Source: Acinetobacter phage YMC13/03/R2096. Taken from it: a DNA stretch of 64,000 nt. The translations under genes and the position numbers were made by a program. Shown here piece after piece: positions 43,215-52,176 of this stretch (the stretch's first letter is position 1; every line of letters starts with the position of its first letter). Location of the stretch: sequence record KM672662.1. One strand, 5' to 3'. The notes below the pieces were generated by a model. It was not told where the DNA came from. It saw only the letters and a program-made list of their open reading frames with translations, and made no database searches.

Positions 43215-44459
43215 ATGGAACAACTTGTTTTAAATATTAATAAAGTCCCTGTTGTGGAAGCATCTCAATTTAAATACTCAGACCATATTTTTGTTTCAGT
43301 TAATGGTCAATTTAAAAGAATGAAAAGAACCGATCTCATTACCTTATTGAGTGCTGATGTTAAAGGTGAAAAAGGTGATAGAGGTCCGATTGGTTTACAA
43401 GGTAGGACTGGAGCTACAGGTGCAACTGGTGCCACAGGAGCTACAGGTGCAACTGGAGATAAAGGCGATAAGGGAGATCGTGGAGATCGTGGTTTCCGAG
43501 GATGGTCACCAGTCTTCAAATCAGTGGCTGAAGATGGTTCTATTTACCTATACTTAAGTGATTGGGTTGGTGGTGAAAATACAAAACCTAATGTTCTGGG
43601 TTATATCTCACCTACAGGGATTGTAAACTATATCACTGAGGGCGCAACTGCAATCAACACTGACTTTGCACCACAGATCAATGACCTTCAAGCAAATAAA
43701 CTAGACGTTGGCTCTACAACTAGTGCTATCCCTGAAGGTTCAAACCTATATTATACAGATGAACGAGTTCGTGCTGCAACCCTTACAGGTCTTTCTACAG
43801 CGACCTCTACAGCTATTGTAGCGACCGATACTGTATTAAGTGCATTTGGCAAGGCACAGGCTCAACTTAACCTTAAACAGAACAGTGCAAGTTTAGGAAC
43901 AGATGTACAAGCTACAGTTCTATCTACTTACACCGTTGGTGGTAATACAGCAATTGCCAACACTGATACCATAGCAGCAGCTTTTGGTAAAGCTCAAGGG
44001 CAAATTAATGCTAGACAACTTTCAGCCAATCTTTCATCTGATGTTCAGGCGTTAGTACTTTCAAGTTATGTTGTTGGTTCTAACACAGCTTTAGCCAATA
44101 CAGATACTTTCATTGCTGCTCTTGGCAAGTTGCAAGGTCAGATCAATGCTAGAGAGGTAGCTGCTAATGTACCAGCAGATGTTAGGGCAACAGTTCTTAC
44201 AGGTCTTTCTACAGCGAGTTCTACAGCAATTACTGCTACAGATACTGTCTTGTCAGCCTTCGGGAAATTACAAGCCCAAGTCAACTTGAAACAAGACTCA
44301 TCTACTCTAGCTGCAAGTGTAAGATCAACAACCCTTACAGGTTTCTCTGCAACACCAAACTCAGCAGTAGTGGCAGCAGATACACTATTGGCAGCAATAG
44401 GAAAATTACAGGCTCAAGTTGATAGTTTATCTTCTAGAGTAACAGCACTAGGAGGATAA
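43215..44459 (+). CDS. collagen-like tail fibre protein with tandem 35-aa repeats
   Basis: A Gly-X-Y tract (GEKGDRGPIGLQGRTGATGATGATGATGATGDKGDKGDRGDRGFRG) is followed by four repeats of the form TLTGLSTA.STAI.ATDTVLSAFGK.QAQ.NLKQ.S. Confidence 0.7.
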   Translation: MEQLVLNINKVPVVEASQFKYSDHIFVSVNGQFKRMKRTDLITLLSADVKGEKGDRGPIGLQGRTGATGATGATGATGATGDKGDKGDRGDRGFRGWSPVFKSVAEDGSIYLYLSDWVGGENTKPNVLGYISPTGIVNYITEGATAINTDFAPQINDLQANKLDVGSTTSAIPEGSNLYYTDERVRAATLTGLSTATSTAIVATDTVLSAFGKAQAQLNLKQNSASLGTDVQATVLSTYTVGGNTAIANTDTIAAAFGKAQGQINARQLSANLSSDVQALVLSSYVVGSNTALANTDTFIAALGKLQGQINAREVAANVPADVRATVLTGLSTASSTAITATDTVLSAFGKLQAQVNLKQDSSTLAASVRSTTLTGFSATPNSAVVAADTLLAAIGKLQAQVDSLSSRVTALGG

Positions 44460-46106: not shown

Positions 46107-48878
46107 TTATTGACAGTTATCACATTCTTCATGTCGCTTAATATCACCAGATCCCCTCATAGAGTAGATGTAATATAAAGCTAAGATACCTGCATTTTCC
46201 AAAGCATATTTGTGAACCTTCATAATATACTCTGGAGTGTCATTACTTGTAAAATACAAGTTGATTGACTGTTGCTGATCAATATATTGTTGTCGTTGTG
46301 CACACAAATCCAAATGTTTGATCATGTCAATCTCAAAGGCAGTTCTAAAGACATCCTTCTCATGCTGAGTCAACCAGTGAACATGTTGTACAGAACCTTT
46401 ATGCTTATTGATGTCATTGATTACGTCTTCATTGTAAACACCACGTTCCTTCATGATCTCTAGAAGGACCTTATTAACCCTCCAGATATCCCCTCCAGCA
46501 CTCTGCTTAACGAACACCATTGCAACATCCAGACCAATACCTTCAGAAGCACCAGCCATAATCTCTGCTGTTGACTTTGTAGGTGGCATCATCATGGTAG
46601 TGGCATTACGGATTCCTAAATGAGCACACCCTTCAGGCATACCAACTTCACGAGCTAGCCACTTAGAAGCAGCTAAGGTTTGGTCTCTCATACCCTTAAA
46701 GATTTCTTCATTTAACCAGAAGCTCTCAAGGCTACCTACCACAATTCTACGTTTTTGTAGTAGTGTGTGGAAACCTAGTACACCTGTACCAACTGCACGG
46801 AATCTCTTGGTGAAGGCTAAGATTTTTCTAAATGCCAAGGCATCCTCTTTATCTTGAGCCATTCTCGTTTCCATGAACTCAATGTAGTCACTCACATTAC
46901 AGTCTTGCATAACATGCGCAATAAATGCTAAGTGAGGACATCTTGATTTCCACTCATCGTATAAGTCAAGGTTCAAGTTTAGAATTACACAAGAGAATGT
47001 ATGCTTCTCATCACTACCAAGTAACACTTCTTGGCAATTCATTGTATTCAAACCATTGAACATCAACATGTTACGTTTTGGCTCAAGTGCACAATATGTA
47101 TCATCAAATCTTCCTTGGTCGATCACTTCATCAACACATACAAATCTTTCAGCAGAACGTTGAGGTTTTCTTTCACTCCATTTTAGGCGGTGTGTTTTTA
47201 AACCTAACTGACTCAACTTAAAGAGACCTGTACTCGATACAAGAAGACGATAAGCATCTTGGCATTCATACAGTCCTTTATCACCTGTACCATTATTGAG
47301 AGGTAATTCTTTTAGACCACCTACATCCCTCAAGACAACCTTTGAAGAAACACCAAGTGTTTGTAACATCAATTGCACATCTTGTAAGAATGTCTTGTGA
47401 ATGCTTACCACTTGGATAGATTCATTTTCACCATTACGAGCAATAGTTCCATCTGAATCTAGGAGTCCAGCAAACCATTCCAATCGGCTTTCAACAGTGT
47501 ACTCAGATGTTGGTACAAAGAATTTATCCTTAAGCCCTTCACTGTGAGTAAGCTTAATACGATCACCACCTTGAAGTCCTGACACTGAAGAAACGCAAGT
47601 TATATTTTCAAGTAACTCCTTCTTCTTACCATACAAGTATGTGTGTTTTTTACCTTTGTATTCAAAACCATCACCAGTGAAGAATCCATTAGTGTAAGCA
47701 TGTCCGAGGGTCTTGTCACCTAAAATAACTGGTAGATCAAATTTAGATAGTCGATCACCAGACTTCAACTCGTAGGCACGTTTAATGACCTCATTGCCAT
47801 CCTCACCAACAACCTTAAAGCGGTGATACTCTGTGCAATCTAATTCATACCCTGAATCAGTTACCACTTTAACTAACTTCTGATTTTCACCAGTTTTGAT
47901 AATTGTCACTTCAGACCATTCAAAACCATTCCACACCTCGACCTGTTGTCCCTCAAGGTCAGAAATCGTTTGATATCCACCTTTAGTTAAGATTAATGTC
48001 TCAGGTGCAACACACAAATTAGAAGCTTTCGCTGTCATACCTGCATCTTTAAATGCCTGAGCTAAGTGGCGGTTCATTTCATCAATCTTAGTGAAGTAAC
48101 CCTTACCACGCTGCATCTTGATAGCAATAGCTTTAGCTAATAGGGCAACTGCTTCTGGGTCATCCTTGACTAACTTCTCAATGTACTCGTCCTTACATAA
48201 CCATGCTGGGTTATTACTTTCAGGTCGTTTGAATAGGTACTTTAAAACTTCCTCAAACTCAGGATGTTCAATACTAACAGCATAAGATAAACTACCTCTA
48301 CGGCTACCTTGAACAACCTCATCCATACAATTAATCAAGTCACGAATGACAGGCATCACCCCACCACCATAACCACCTCTAGGCAGTTTCTTACCTTTAT
48401 AGGCCCAGTCATCAACTGAGTAAGATGTACCATGCGAGTGCTTAGTCAAGATACCTGCTTCAGTCACACAATCGTAACGAGAGAACAAGTTGTCACCAAC
48501 ATAACCACCAGCACAACTTACTGTTGACCCCCTTTCAGGTAAACCACTGTTCGCCAATAAAGGAGTTGAACAAGACACATAACCATCCCAAAGTACGTCA
48601 AAAAACACTTCCTCCCAAGTTTTACCAGCCGTATAAGTATCCACATTCCACCAAGAAGGGTACTTATCTGGTGCATGTTTAGCTAAAGTCTTAGCAATCA
48701 TTTTATAGCGAGATTTTACAGTCTCACCATTCCAAGAATATTTTTCAAAGAACAATTGAGTACCACCAGTGGTAAACCATTTAGGGATCTCTCCATGTTC
48801 TTGTAGTTTTTTTCTGAGTTGACTGTAACTATCAACCCCGTATAATTCCAATGTTTCTAAATAAGATAAAACAGCCAC
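46107..48878 (-). CDS. nrdA: ribonucleotide reductase large subunit (class I NrdA/NrdE-like) containing an intein
   Basis: N-terminal ATP-cone-like region. The active-site motif ASNLC is interrupted after the Cys and resumes as CQEVLL. The C-terminus carries the CxxC tail ECDNCQ. Confidence 0.85.
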   Translation of the reverse strand: MAVLSYLETLELYGVDSYSQLRKKLQEHGEIPKWFTTGGTQLFFEKYSWNGETVKSRYKMIAKTLAKHAPDKYPSWWNVDTYTAGKTWEEVFFDVLWDGYVSCSTPLLANSGLPERGSTVSCAGGYVGDNLFSRYDCVTEAGILTKHSHGTSYSVDDWAYKGKKLPRGGYGGGVMPVIRDLINCMDEVVQGSRRGSLSYAVSIEHPEFEEVLKYLFKRPESNNPAWLCKDEYIEKLVKDDPEAVALLAKAIAIKMQRGKGYFTKIDEMNRHLAQAFKDAGMTAKASNLCVAPETLILTKGGYQTISDLEGQQVEVWNGFEWSEVTIIKTGENQKLVKVVTDSGYELDCTEYHRFKVVGEDGNEVIKRAYELKSGDRLSKFDLPVILGDKTLGHAYTNGFFTGDGFEYKGKKHTYLYGKKKELLENITCVSSVSGLQGGDRIKLTHSEGLKDKFFVPTSEYTVESRLEWFAGLLDSDGTIARNGENESIQVVSIHKTFLQDVQLMLQTLGVSSKVVLRDVGGLKELPLNNGTGDKGLYECQDAYRLLVSSTGLFKLSQLGLKTHRLKWSERKPQRSAERFVCVDEVIDQGRFDDTYCALEPKRNMLMFNGLNTMNCQEVLLGSDEKHTFSCVILNLNLDLYDEWKSRCPHLAFIAHVMQDCNVSDYIEFMETRMAQDKEDALAFRKILAFTKRFRAVGTGVLGFHTLLQKRRIVVGSLESFWLNEEIFKGMRDQTLAASKWLAREVGMPEGCAHLGIRNATTMMMPPTKSTAEIMAGASEGIGLDVAMVFVKQSAGGDIWRVNKVLLEIMKERGVYNEDVINDINKHKGSVQHVHWLTQHEKDVFRTAFEIDMIKHLDLCAQRQQYIDQQQSINLYFTSNDTPEYIMKVHKYALENAGILALYYIYSMRGSGDIKRHEECDNCQ
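47037..48014 (-). other. intein (326 aa) with LAGLIDADG homing-endonuclease domain inside nrdA
   Basis: Starts with Cys289 (CVAPETLILT). Two dodecapeptide motifs: YTNGFFTGDGF and EWFAGLLDSDGT. Ends ..LMFNGLNTMN, with Cys as the +1 residue. The joined extein reads ASNL-CQEVLL. Confidence 0.75.
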
Positions 48879-48888
48879 AAATACCTCC

Positions 48889-49395
48889 TTACTTACTTCC
48901 TTGTAATCCTTTATTATCTTCTGAATCTTCCATGATCAGATTCAAGAGTTCTTCTTGTTCCTCTTGTTCTTTCTTCCTCATATTATTCCAAGCTTCTACA
49001 AACATAGCCTCAGACCAGTTACTTTCATACTCTCGGTTTTGACCCTTAGTGAAGAAATCTGGCATCTGGTAACCGTATGTATTTAAGTTAAACATCTTAG
49101 CCACTTTAGAATCCTTCTGAGTAACTTGGAACTCTTTAGGGATTTTATCTACAGGAACCTGCAAACGAGTCAAGAAAGTAAAGATTCGGAAGCGCACAAA
49201 ATCAATGTACTCGGCTGTTGTATACCCATTGAGTGAACCTGAAGGGATTGCCATATCAATGATTCGCTTCTCATGCTCTAACACGTAGTGGCAAGCTTGT
49301 AGTAACTTTCCAAACATTTCTTCATGCTCATGTAGAGGTTTTCCTACTTCATGGAAATAGGTGTTAAAATGTTCTGCGGCGTAAATTCCATGCAA
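48889..49395 (-). CDS. nrdB: ribonucleotide reductase small subunit, exon 2
   Basis: LHGIYAAEHFNTYFHEV...GSLNGYTTAEYIDFVRFRIFTFLTRLQVP aligns with the C-terminal half of R2. It supplies H241-equivalent and the acidic C-terminus. The exon starts after omega-G of ..CCCATG. Confidence 0.65.
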   Translation of the reverse strand: MHGIYAAEHFNTYFHEVGKPLHEHEEMFGKLLQACHYVLEHEKRIIDMAIPSGSLNGYTTAEYIDFVRFRIFTFLTRLQVPVDKIPKEFQVTQKDSKVAKMFNLNTYGYQMPDFFTKGQNREYESNWSEAMFVEAWNNMRKKEQEEQEELLNLIMEDSEDNKGLQGSK

Positions 49396-50251
49396 CATGG
49401 GTTGTTCAGGTGTGCTCGTTACACACACCCCGTAGAGTACTTCACCACTCAAGTACTCACAGCTTACACTTTCATGTAAGATCAGACTATATCATCACCA
49501 CAAGGTTTTACTTGTTGTGGTGCTTCCCACTTCGGTCTTACTTAAGACCTACTCCCCGAAGGGATAGTCGTTGAGGATTCTAAACCTAATTCCAACCACA
49601 AAGCTTTCCAACGTTTTTTATGCCTAATTAACGAAACATATCTACTGTGTATTCCAAAAACTCTAGAGATCTGTTTGTTAGTAAAACCTGCTAAGCACAT
49701 ACGAATAACCTTTTCAGCATCATCCTTTGTCAGTTTAACAGTCGAGTTCCTATATCTAGCACCACTTAACGAGACATTTTTATTGGGATTTTCCCAAAAA
49801 TTACGATAGTGGTGATGCACATTATCCTCTTGTTTTACAACCTCTAAATTTTCTATACAATTGTTTAGCTTGTTAGCATCAATATGATTTATTACAAATC
49901 CCTTTGGTATAACACCTTTGATGCACTCCCAAACGAATCTGTGACCATTTTCAGTCACACCATTGAATTCATATTGCCGATAACCTGTAGTTGATAAACA
50001 GCCTCTCATAAGCTGTCCTCTCTTTCCATACACATTTCCAAATACATCGCAACTGTATCCAGAAAATTTTGGATGTTTAAATTTTTCCATAATTACCTCC
50101 ATAATAAGAGGTTGGAATTAGGTTTAGCTTTCCTGCTGATTGCCCAATACTTTAGATTTTTACTCAGTGTTTAAATTTTTCAACACTTCAGTACTAAAGT
50201 CTCTAAGGGGTTTCCAGCATTTCAAGAAGTTTATTGAGGACTTGCAAATTA
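49396..50251 (-). ncRNA. group I intron in nrdB (about 856 nt) carrying an HNH homing endonuclease ORF
   Basis: On the - strand it begins TAATTTGC.. right after exon codon GAT. It contains GAAATGCTGGAAACCCCTTAGAG and GGGCAATCAGCAGG. After the ORF come CAACGACTAT (R), GATGATATAGTCTGATCTTACATG (S) and 3' hairpins. Confidence 0.65.
49542..50102 (-). CDS. intron-encoded HNH homing endonuclease
   Basis: 186 aa. Contains ..GYRQYEFNGVTENGHRFVWECIKGVIPKGFVINHIDANKLNNCIENL, an HNH motif with N and H residues, plus a C-terminal helix-turn-helix-like region. It lies between intron core elements. Confidence 0.7.
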   Translation of the reverse strand: MEVIMEKFKHPKFSGYSCDVFGNVYGKRGQLMRGCLSTTGYRQYEFNGVTENGHRFVWECIKGVIPKGFVINHIDANKLNNCIENLEVVKQEDNVHHHYRNFWENPNKNVSLSGARYRNSTVKLTKDDAEKVIRMCLAGFTNKQISRVFGIHSRYVSLIRHKKRWKALWLELGLESSTTIPSGSRS

Positions 50252-51016
50252 ATCCTCATCTAGTGCACTCTGATTAGCAATTTGGGCAATAACTTTAATT
50301 AAGTTAAAACCGTTTGTCTGGAAGCTCTTAAGGATAGCAAAGCTAGAGAATAACAAAGCTGTCTCTGTTAAAGAGAAGCACAAGCATGCAAGCATCTTGT
50401 TTTCATCTCGCATTAACCCATCTAACCATTCCATACGTTCATTGAGCACAGGGTCATCAATGTATGATGTGTAGTAATCATCGGTATCTAGTCCAAGTAC
50501 AATGTTAATCTCATTGTATGTTCGTGCATGGACCATCAACTCAATCATTGCTAAGGCAGAAGCACCAGCACGGGATTCATGTCGAGGGAATACTTTAATG
50601 AATAATCCATTCCAGAATTCATCACCAACAATTAATTCATACTGTAAGAATAAGTGTAGAACTGTTTTTACTGCATGTAGTTGCTCTTTAGTTAGCACAT
50701 ACTCAAGTTCCATCTGGTCATTCTTGACTTCCATTTCACTCTTAAACCACATCTGCTCTTCAAGCTGCTGGTCAGCAATCTCAAGAATCTTTGGGTACTT
50801 AATCTCATAGCCACTATTGGGTGATGTAATACGGGTTTGCACTAACCCAGTTTTCTCTGAATTTAGTGTTTTGTTTATTGTCACATAAACGAATTTCCCT
50901 TCAGGGTTTTTCTCATCCTTGACATTGATGATTACCTTTCCAGTTGGTGGTGGTAAAAATCCAATCTTCTCAACCTGACCTTCGGTTAAATCTACCTCAA
51001 TATTAATTTTAGACAT
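50252..51016 (-). CDS. nrdB: ribonucleotide reductase small subunit, exon 1
   Basis: VGDEFW.., ALAMIELMVHARTY (E115/H118 equivalents), SLTETALLF (E204 equivalent) and ..SALDED. Splicing to exon 2 recreates DED-LH (the E238-x-x-H241 pattern). About 100 aa of the N-terminus is non-homologous. Confidence 0.65.
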
Positions 51017-51572: not shown

Positions 51573-51970
51573 ATAGTCTCCTTATGAATTGTTTACATAA
51601 TATGTAGGGATGATTTCTGGCACCACTACAAGTTGCAGGTATTGTAGTATGAATTAAATTTATAAAACACCCCACACCTTTAGAAATTCTTAAAAGTTTA
51701 CCTTGTTTGGTTGTTTGTTATACACAACACAAAGTTAAGGTATCCTCTTGATAAAACTTTTAGAGAATAAAAAAGGGCACCACCTTGAAGTAGTGCCCTA
51801 AAAGTTACCCTAGGAAATATTACTATAATAACCCCTGAGGCAAATTTTTTAAGTTTCCCTTATATTTATAGTACCCCAAAAAGCAATTTTGTCAATATGT
51901 AAACCACAAATATACTGATTGGAAATTTCGATTAAAAATTAAATATTAGTAAATTCTGTAAAAAATACAT

Positions 51971-52053
51971 CAGACTGATTTGATCAAATGCATTTTTTAA
52001 AAGTGAACATAACCAGTTCAAAATGGTTTTAACCAGACCGATTTGATCATATG
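51971..52053. repeat. direct repeat CAGAC(T/C)GATTTGATCA(A/T)ATG x2 containing TGATCA palindromes, plus AACCAG repeats
   Basis: Copies at 51971-51990 and 52034-52053. They sit in a 560-bp AT-rich intergenic region with divergent promoters. Confidence 0.45.
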
Positions 52054-52100
52054 TTCTAATAAGGTAATAAATAGGGTTTTAAATATGTTTCTTTTTTAAG

Positions 52101-52127
52101 TTGACAGAGAAAAAAATTTTTTATAAA
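52101..52127 (+). promoter_or_regulatory. promoter (TTGACA, 15-nt spacer, TATAAA)
   Basis: Upstream of 52177. Confidence 0.4.
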
Positions 52128-52176
52128 GTTATCCACATCCAAAGATGGTTGATTGGTATAAGTAAGGAGAATTTTC

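Follow-up and report, generated by a model that had tools for sequence, protein, structure and literature searches.

In Acinetobacter phage YMC13/03/R2096 (sequence record KM672662.1), analysed here as a 64,000-nucleotide (nt) stretch that we call the window and to which all positions refer, the ribonucleotide reductase (RNR) gene nrdA carries an in-frame insert that is very probably a bifunctional intein, in which a Hint splicing domain is interrupted by a LAGLIDADG homing endonuclease; it lies between Leu288 and the catalytic Cys, and we infer that it both splices and homes. The precursor open reading frame (ORF; 46107..48878, (-) strand) starts with GTG, encodes the RNR alpha subunit together with the intein in 923 residues of calculated mass 104.5 kDa, and matches Pfam Ribonuc_red_lgC (E 1e-49) and lgN as well as NCBIfam NrdE-prime/PRK09102. 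The intein corresponds to Cys289-Asn614 of the precursor (47037..48014, (-)), that is 326 residues running from Cys1 to Met325-Asn326 with a mass of 36.6 kDa. It is flanked by an N-extein of residues 1-288 (48015..48878, (-)) that ends in AKASNL, and by a C-extein of residues 615-923 plus the stop codon (46107..47036, (-)), the first residue of which, Cys+1 (codon 47034-47036), is the Cys of the SNLCxE active-site motif. With a slash marking each junction, the protein therefore reads SNL/C...TMN/CQEV, the reading frame being kept throughout; SNLC begins at precursor residue 286 and CQEVLL follows directly after the insert. The original prediction for this DNA had proposed a LAGLIDADG intein at the RNR catalytic Cys, and the empty allele, one-piece orthologues, profiles and fold described below all agree with it; its coordinates (47037-48014, 326 residues, SNLC and then CQEVLL, with Cys at the start, TMN at the end and Cys at +1) proved exact, the two motifs it named, GFFTGDGF and FAGLLDSDGT, are present at 47664-47687 and 47445-47474, and its masses of about 105 and 68 kDa before and after splicing compare with calculated values of 104.5 and 67.8 kDa.

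The insert is absent from a close relative. A megablast search with the gene returned five Acinetobacter baumannii myophages at 96-98% identity, of which Herod, Bestia, Ab15 and AM24 cover the full 2772 nt, while Mithridates covers 65% of the query in two pieces. The annotated nrdA of Mithridates is 1794 nt long and, in a base-by-base comparison (97% nucleotide identity), lacks exactly the 978 nt of the insert: the N-extein of the window is colinear with its nt 1-864 and the C-extein with its nt 865-1794, with 52 of 1794 nucleotides differing and three amino acid changes. At the junction, Mithridates reads ...TCT AAT TTG/TGT CAG GAA..., and the window reads ...TCT AAT TTG, then the 978 nt, then TGC CAA GAA...; the empty site in Mithridates is GCTTCTAATTTG followed immediately by TGTCAGGAAGTG, and the N-flank also occurs in the variant form TCAAACTTA. 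Because an allele that is 97% identical lacks precisely these 978 nt, the insert is no chance feature, and the comparison with intein-free alleles that had been proposed as a check comes out in favour of the intein.

Beyond this single allele, a tblastn search with the spliced sequence of 597 residues found it in one piece in Mithridates (99.3%), in Ab1-TPeters (70.6%) and in many Pseudomonas phages (~59%), and in two pieces only in Herod, Bestia, Ab15 and AM24. Insert-free orthologues have 574-597 codons, and the earlier remark that a NrdA of 923 residues is about 320 longer than typical is accordingly true for the short type of alpha subunit. A PDB search aligned the spliced protein from end to end with the short alpha chains of 6dqw and 6dqx, at E about 1e-69, the N-extein by itself being alignable as far as the SNL of the SNLCxE motif; at the junction, ASNLCqEvlL stands opposite ASNLCsEImL of 6dqw, so that removing the insert restores SNLCxE. 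Since the spliced sequence is uninterrupted in orthologues and in solved chains, a native domain is excluded, and it is the Cys of the N-x-C-x-E motif that stands directly after the insert. From RNR enzymology and the motif alignment, we take this residue to be the thiyl-radical Cys (Cys439 in E. coli NrdA). That the segment might be an additional RNR domain retained in the mature enzyme, the finding that had been named as fatal to the prediction, has the in-frame continuity of the ORF in its favour and nothing more. An allele with 97% identity lacks the segment exactly, the other orthologues and the solved structures run through SNLCxE without interruption, the segment has the fold of an intein with an endonuclease, and the Asn and Cys of the active-site motif would stand 326 residues apart; the empty allele and the uninterrupted orthologues refute this reading, to which we attach a negligible probability.

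The host enzyme is a short, ATP-cone-less class I RNR alpha subunit of an A. baumannii myophage of the AM24/Herod/Bestia/Mithridates group. Both RNR subunits of the window (46107-48878 and 48889-51016, (-)) best match one set of short solved structures, 6dqw and 6dqx for alpha and 8dq4, 6cwo and 6cwq for beta, which we take to be minimal, ATP-cone-less class Id enzymes; the RNR genes of the GenBank relatives are labelled 'class Ia'.

Profile searches and structure prediction identify the insert itself. The NCBIfam model intein_Nterm (TIGR01445) matches at 35.7 bits (cut-off 24.5), beginning at insert residue 1, and the Pfam family LAGLIDADG_3 (PF14528) at 44 bits (cut-off 22.5), which answers the call of the original prediction for a search for Hint and LAGLIDADG domains. 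A PDB sequence search with the insert alone gave just a weak match to PI-PfuI (E 1.5e-4, the best in the PDB), and because this match was weak, a comparison of folds was needed for a clear identity. The AlphaFold2 model of the insert (29 aligned sequences; mean predicted local distance difference test 94.2, predicted template-modelling score 0.91) consists of an all-beta N-terminal part, a central part with the order alpha-beta-beta-alpha-beta-beta followed by alpha-beta-beta-alpha-beta-beta-beta-beta-alpha, and a C-terminal beta hairpin region. When compared with the PDB by Foldseek, it matched TliVMA first (7e-14), followed by PI-SceI, PI-PfuI and PI-TkoII, with further matches to I-DmoI for the central part (E about 1e-5) and to the Ssp DnaB mini-intein for the splicing part. 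The model, the Foldseek matches and TIGR01445 thus agree on a Hint fold, and the sequence, PF14528 and the model agree on a LAGLIDADG endonuclease of the two-motif kind, with two helices that end in an acidic residue followed by Gly and with a pseudo-dimeric fold.

Three parts of the intein can be delimited, all on the (-) strand. The N-terminal part of the Hint domain takes up intein residues ~1-102 (47709..48014), where TIGR01445 covers residues 1-66 and the model is all-beta, and includes block B with Thr61-x-x-His64 (47823-47834). The LAGLIDADG domain follows at residues ~103-285 (47160..47708), as placed by PF14528, by the secondary structure of the AlphaFold2 model and by the I-DmoI matches, and is modelled as a pseudo-dimer of two alpha-beta-beta-alpha-beta-beta halves. 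Its first motif, GFFTGDGF (in the context TNGFFTGDG; 47664..47687, precursor residues 398-405), contains the acidic residue Asp115 of the intein, and its second, FAGLLDSDGT (47445..47474, precursor residues 469-478), contains Asp188. The C-terminal part of the Hint domain, residues 286-326 (47037..47159), is placed by family alignments and by model strands at 293-308, 316-319 and 322-325; it carries blocks F and G, with Cys308 (F:4), Asn315 at the position usually held by His, Thr324 (G:5), Met325 (G:6) and Asn326.

We then surveyed these residues in 164 family sequences in which both junctions were located, 151 of them alignable across blocks F and G. Cys1 is present in 163/164, the block B Thr (B:7) in 164/164 and the block B His (B:10) in 163/164, and the window intein has all three; the +1 residue is Cys in 162/163 and the N-flank is SNL in 123/163. 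At the C-terminal residue, Gln (89) and Asn (61) predominate. The acidic column of motif 1 holds Asp or Glu in 152/153 aligned relatives and that of motif 2 holds Asp in 147/152, both acidic residues being intact in the window and in 147/164 relatives.

The end of the window intein departs from the typical intein in having Met325 in place of the penultimate His. The description of this Met-Asn terminus as non-canonical stands when it is compared with the general intein consensus, but does not hold within the family, where G:6 is Gly in 137 of the 151 sequences, Met in 5, Ser in 4, Ala in 2, Leu in 2, Phe in 1 and His in 0. Three representatives that are 44-45% identical to the window intein also end in Met-Asn, by which we ruled out that the terminus is unique, and a further one has Met-Gln. 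Of the five members whose G:6 residue is Met, four carry Leu at position 317, where Gly is found in 109/151; the usual pair elsewhere is Gly/Gly, and this pattern suggests that Met325 (47040-47042, (-)) and Leu317 (47064-47066, (-)) may compensate for each other in the packing of the C-terminal hairpin. The position of the block F His is occupied by His in 86 sequences, by Asn in 43 and by Gly in 20, so that Asn315 of the window is a common state, the His being absent in 65/151 relatives. It has been reported that the block F His is able to substitute for the penultimate one (PMC5050341) and that about 5% of functional inteins lack a penultimate His (PMC4031507). Judged from these alignments, Met-Asn is a rare, recurrent variant in a family that is itself non-canonical, and is odd only relative to the general intein consensus.

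The splicing class of the intein has to be considered together with a further conserved residue. Class 3 inteins are characterised by a Trp(B:12)-Cys(F:4)-Thr(G:5) triplet, with the block F Cys serving as first nucleophile and with no Cys1 or Ser1 (PMC2807308; PMC4031507). In the window (47037-47099 and 47817-47834, (-)), Cys308 and Thr324 are present, but Cys1 is also present and B:12 is Phe66; because it keeps Cys1, Thr-x-x-His and Cys+1 and has Phe at B:12, we file the window intein as class 1 by sequence. Across the family, Cys is found at F:4 in 151/151 and Thr at G:5 in 137/151, and B:12 is shared between Trp (43) and Phe (121); about 40 members (approximately the quarter with Trp at B:12) combine the full triplet with Cys1. 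This raises an outside chance that the whole SNL/C family is not plainly class 1, with Cys308 acting as an obligatory second nucleophile or linked by a disulfide to Cys1 or to the Cys that later carries the thiyl radical. Such a route, in which a branched thioester at Cys308 or a regulatory disulfide with Cys1 or Cys+1 would replace or add to the Cys1 pathway, would fit the invariance of F:4 and the triplet-bearing members, and also the report of Tori et al. that standard inteins mostly have Asp at F:4 but triplet-bearing ones Cys, three of the latter having Ser1 or Cys1 and being of a class then left open (PMC2807308). The same family, however, keeps Cys1 in all sequences but one and the standard block B Thr and His as class 1 inteins do, has Cys at +1, a position held by Ser or Thr in nearly every class 3 intein (PMC2807308), and includes an SPbeta-like member with Asp at F:4 at the same site; with Phe at B:12 in the window as well, we consider this route doubtful. 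If the disulfide version were true, the redox state of the host cell during infection would govern how the phage RNR matures.

We subsequently compared the five occupied alleles (window, Herod, Bestia, Ab15 and AM24) in all ten pairwise combinations. In every pair the intein is the less diverged part, by a factor of 3-9 (0.2-1.1% of nucleotides in the intein versus 1.8-7.6% in the exteins; Fisher p between 0.019 and 3e-17). Scanned in 126-nt windows, the intein has a mean pairwise diversity of 0.000-0.017 and the sequence around it one of 0.013-0.073, and the low-diversity block starts at the N-junction, where some pairs differ already at -1, -4 and -7, and ends 56 nt downstream of the intein. 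This pattern is what would be expected if the intein had recently entered nrdA genes that were already diverged, with a short co-converted tract. The +1 and +2 codons are TGC CAA in all occupied alleles and TGT CAG in the empty allele of Mithridates (47025-47036, (-)), and the N-flank of the occupied alleles exists in two versions, TCT AAT TTG and TCA AAC TTA (48015-48023, (-)). These differences, clustered at the insertion site, are synonymous and could be marks of co-conversion or target variants that resist cleavage. Purifying selection on the exteins was discounted as evidence of splicing, because most of the extein divergence is older than the young intein.

Several observations weigh against a splicing, homing intein in the window. 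The Pfam model Intein_splicing (PF14890) reaches 27.6 bits where its gathering score is 35.8, and TIGR01443, a model of the intein C-terminus, did not match the insert in the profile search; we attribute both to the atypical blocks F and G and not to the lack of a Hint domain. The penultimate His and the block F His are both missing. Non-synonymous changes make up about half of the altered codons in the intein, compared with about 15% in the exteins, which suggests weak constraint, as in a selfish element, but would fit early decay as well. General phage recombination could also spread a young segment without any action of the endonuclease. Lastly, for the window intein itself, both splicing and cleavage are read from the conserved residues.

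One of these points, the missing histidines, bears on whether the insert splices at all. If it no longer did so, nrdA would be dead, the phage would use the host RNR, and the frame would be open only through the recency of the insertion; the missing helper histidines (Met325, Asn315) would be in keeping with this, the ICP1 paper states that phage T4 can do without nrdA (PMC3037004), and an intact frame is weak evidence of selection because the occupied alleles diverge by at most 1.1%. Nevertheless, the three nucleophiles and Thr-x-x-His are intact, and the 65 of 151 relatives that also lack the block F His, with none having His at G:6, belong to a family that is large and conserved. Met-Asn recurs at 44-45% identity, with Met paired with Leu317 in four of five cases, as would be seen for compensated and maintained variants, and the frame has stayed open in five isolates from Russia and the USA. 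We therefore regard a dead nrdA as very unlikely and splicing as by far the better account.

Other points concern the endonuclease. Splicing could be intact and the endonuclease inactive or being lost, in which case the distribution of the element would come from ordinary recombination, or from vertical descent with one precise loss, instead of homing. Non-synonymous and synonymous changes are about equally frequent in the intein (e.g. 7:4, 6:2, 4:3) and about 1:6 in the exteins, the nrdA flanks are mosaic (the N-extein of the window is closest to AM24 and Bestia, its C-extein to Herod), and the family includes nine mini-inteins and members with degenerate motifs, such as that of Caulobacter phage Magneto. 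Set against this, the window intein retains its two catalytic Asp residues and the two Gly-rich motifs, none of the ten variable intein residues falls at a catalytic or motif position, and the domain folds at high confidence in the AlphaFold2 model. The limits of the low-diversity block, moreover, match those of the intein except for a short stretch added downstream, as co-conversion would produce. Loss of endonuclease activity is thus a possibility to be taken seriously, although an unlikely one, and we favour an intein that splices and whose endonuclease is functional.

On this account, the conserved residues point to class 1 self-splicing of the 104.5-kDa precursor. An N-S acyl shift at Cys1, helped by Thr61 and His64, would be followed by transfer of the N-extein to the thiol of Cys+1; cyclisation of Asn326 would then free the 36.6-kDa intein, and an S-N shift would give ...SNL-CQEV... 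in the 67.8-kDa enzyme. Splicing would itself create the active site, since the Cys that serves as nucleophile at +1 would go on to carry the radical. At the DNA level, the excised intein would cut an intein-free nrdA near the SNL/C codons during co-infection, and repair from the occupied allele would copy in the intein together with about 56 nt of downstream flank.

The window intein does not stand alone. A tblastn search with it returned 334 phage records, including phages of Rheinheimera (115) and of Vibrio (92, among them ICP1, described as 'intein-containing' in the records), Caulobacter phiCbK-like phages (39, whose records mark the intein as a mature peptide), and Bacillus SPbeta-like, Corynebacterium, Staphylococcus and Pectobacterium phiTE phages. 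Nine phage loci that we translated have the junctions SNL/C...CxE, with the intein ending in Gly or Ser followed by Gln or Asn, or TNP/C in a class II-type enzyme; seven metagenomic members share these junctions, and IMG/VR (L015-L021) adds class II-type RNR hosts (NP/C) and a giant-virus metagenome-assembled genome. Mini-inteins of 130-137 residues without an endonuclease domain occur at the same SNL/C site (IMG/VR L022-L024, match 1501-1911) and are 47-52% identical to the splicing parts of the window intein. A phmmer search of 1.84 billion cluster representatives gave 2197 matches at E<=1e-3 and 519 at E<=1e-30. With insertion right before the Cys of N-x-C-x-E and similarity over the full length, the window intein is, on sequence comparison, a new addition to an already known and large family of inteins at the RNR active site. 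The GenBank records of its four closest relatives (Herod, Bestia, Ab15 and AM24) leave the intein unannotated, and our literature search found no paper that mentions an intein in the AM24 group.

Several members of this family have been described. The NrdA intein of ICP1 and its LAGLIDADG endonuclease gp203 are known (PMC3037004, PMC10448857), and the intein is said to be spliced out of NrdA (PMC10448857). ICP1-type inteins, from phages of Vibrio, Rheinheimera, Aeromonas, Pectobacterium and Staphylococcus, share with the window intein the SNL/C and CxE junctions, a length of 326-337 residues and the two domains, and are 48-55% identical to it over the full length; they differ in ending in Gly-Gln instead of Met-Asn, in having GDGC instead of GDGF in motif 1, and in residing in longer class I alpha subunits of other lineages. 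The inteins of the phiCbK-like phages and of RIR1 of Chilo iridescent virus (CIV; IIV-6) agree with it in the site, in Cys1 and Cys+1 and in lacking a penultimate His. Those of the phiCbK-like phages are much more distant than the ICP1-type (30-31% identity over the full length, E 4e-23), and the member in Caulobacter phage Magneto differs in its degenerate LAGLIDADG motifs, FAGFD and LDAAGE. CIV RIR1 is tied to the family indirectly, through the phiCbK paper, which annotates the NrdA intein and knew of no relative of it but the IIV-6 protein (PMC3556154); the CIV RNR intein has been shown to splice with its native C-terminal Gln (PMC4031507).

More remote still, the SPbeta bnrdE intein, as found in the SPbeta-like phage Goe11, lies at the same site in a class Ib alpha subunit (SNL/C...GN/CSEV), has a LAGLIDADG domain and ends in Gly-Asn, but is 26% identical, is 385 residues long with extra insertions, and has Asp at F:4. 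Among solved inteins, PI-SceI, PI-PfuI (the Pyrococcus RNR intein), TliVMA and PI-TkoII likewise have a Hint domain split by a LAGLIDADG pseudo-dimer (Foldseek E 7e-14 to 9e-8, query-normalised template-modelling score about 0.53-0.64); they differ in identity (12-17%), in length (360-540 residues) and in ending in His-Asn, and some have additional DNA-recognition regions that are absent from the compact 326-residue window intein.

The general picture is unchanged by this element, which is ordinary, RNR active-site motifs being well-known targets of inteins and introns. In the four closest GenBank genomes, the 923-residue product is labelled as a plain ribonucleotide reductase, and both the mature 597-residue enzyme and the endonuclease go unreported. 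The six near-identical A. baumannii phages, which are candidates for therapy and include one empty nrdA allele and a polymorphic nrdB intron, form a convenient natural system for measuring homing of inteins and introns and co-conversion in lytic phages. The combination of Met-Asn with Asn at the block F His position may, in addition, help in studying how C-terminal cyclisation is catalysed without either histidine.

The nrdB intron just mentioned lies in the adjacent gene. In the window, nrdB (48889..51016, (-)) is split by an 856-nt group I intron (49396..50251); exon 1 (50252..51016) and exon 2 (48889..49395) together make 1272 nt, the length of the intact nrdB of Mithridates, AM24 and Bestia. 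The intron contains an ORF (49542..50102, (-)) with an HNH_3 domain and a helix-turn-helix, of homing-endonuclease type. It splits the sequence ...LDED/LHG..., which aligns with the IDEQIH stretch of solved beta subunits, and its site is probably the second ExxH metal-ligand motif. The Rfam model Intron_gpI scores 43.6 bits on the window intron, below its gathering score, because the ORF interrupts the intron core; the identification is settled by the nrdB intron of Herod, which is 322 nt long, lacks an ORF and scores 82.4 bits in Rfam, and the version in Ab15 measures 448 nt. Two independent homing elements, one in each RNR gene, thus vary among the phages of this group.

Further differences between these genomes were seen upstream of the nrd cluster, where Herod and Bestia have an extra, free-standing gene for an 'HNH homing endonuclease/DNA-binding protein' (L003 2846-3454 and L004 3159-3767). 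The window, like Mithridates and AM24, has ~600 nt there (51573-52176) with no ORF of 80 residues or more. Elsewhere in the window, a tail-fibre-like ORF (43215-44459, (+)) contains the collagen-like run GATGATGATGATGATGDKGDKGDRGDRG, after which come about seven tandem units of ~33 residues that end in ...AFGKAQAQLNLKQ or ...ALGKLQGQINAR.

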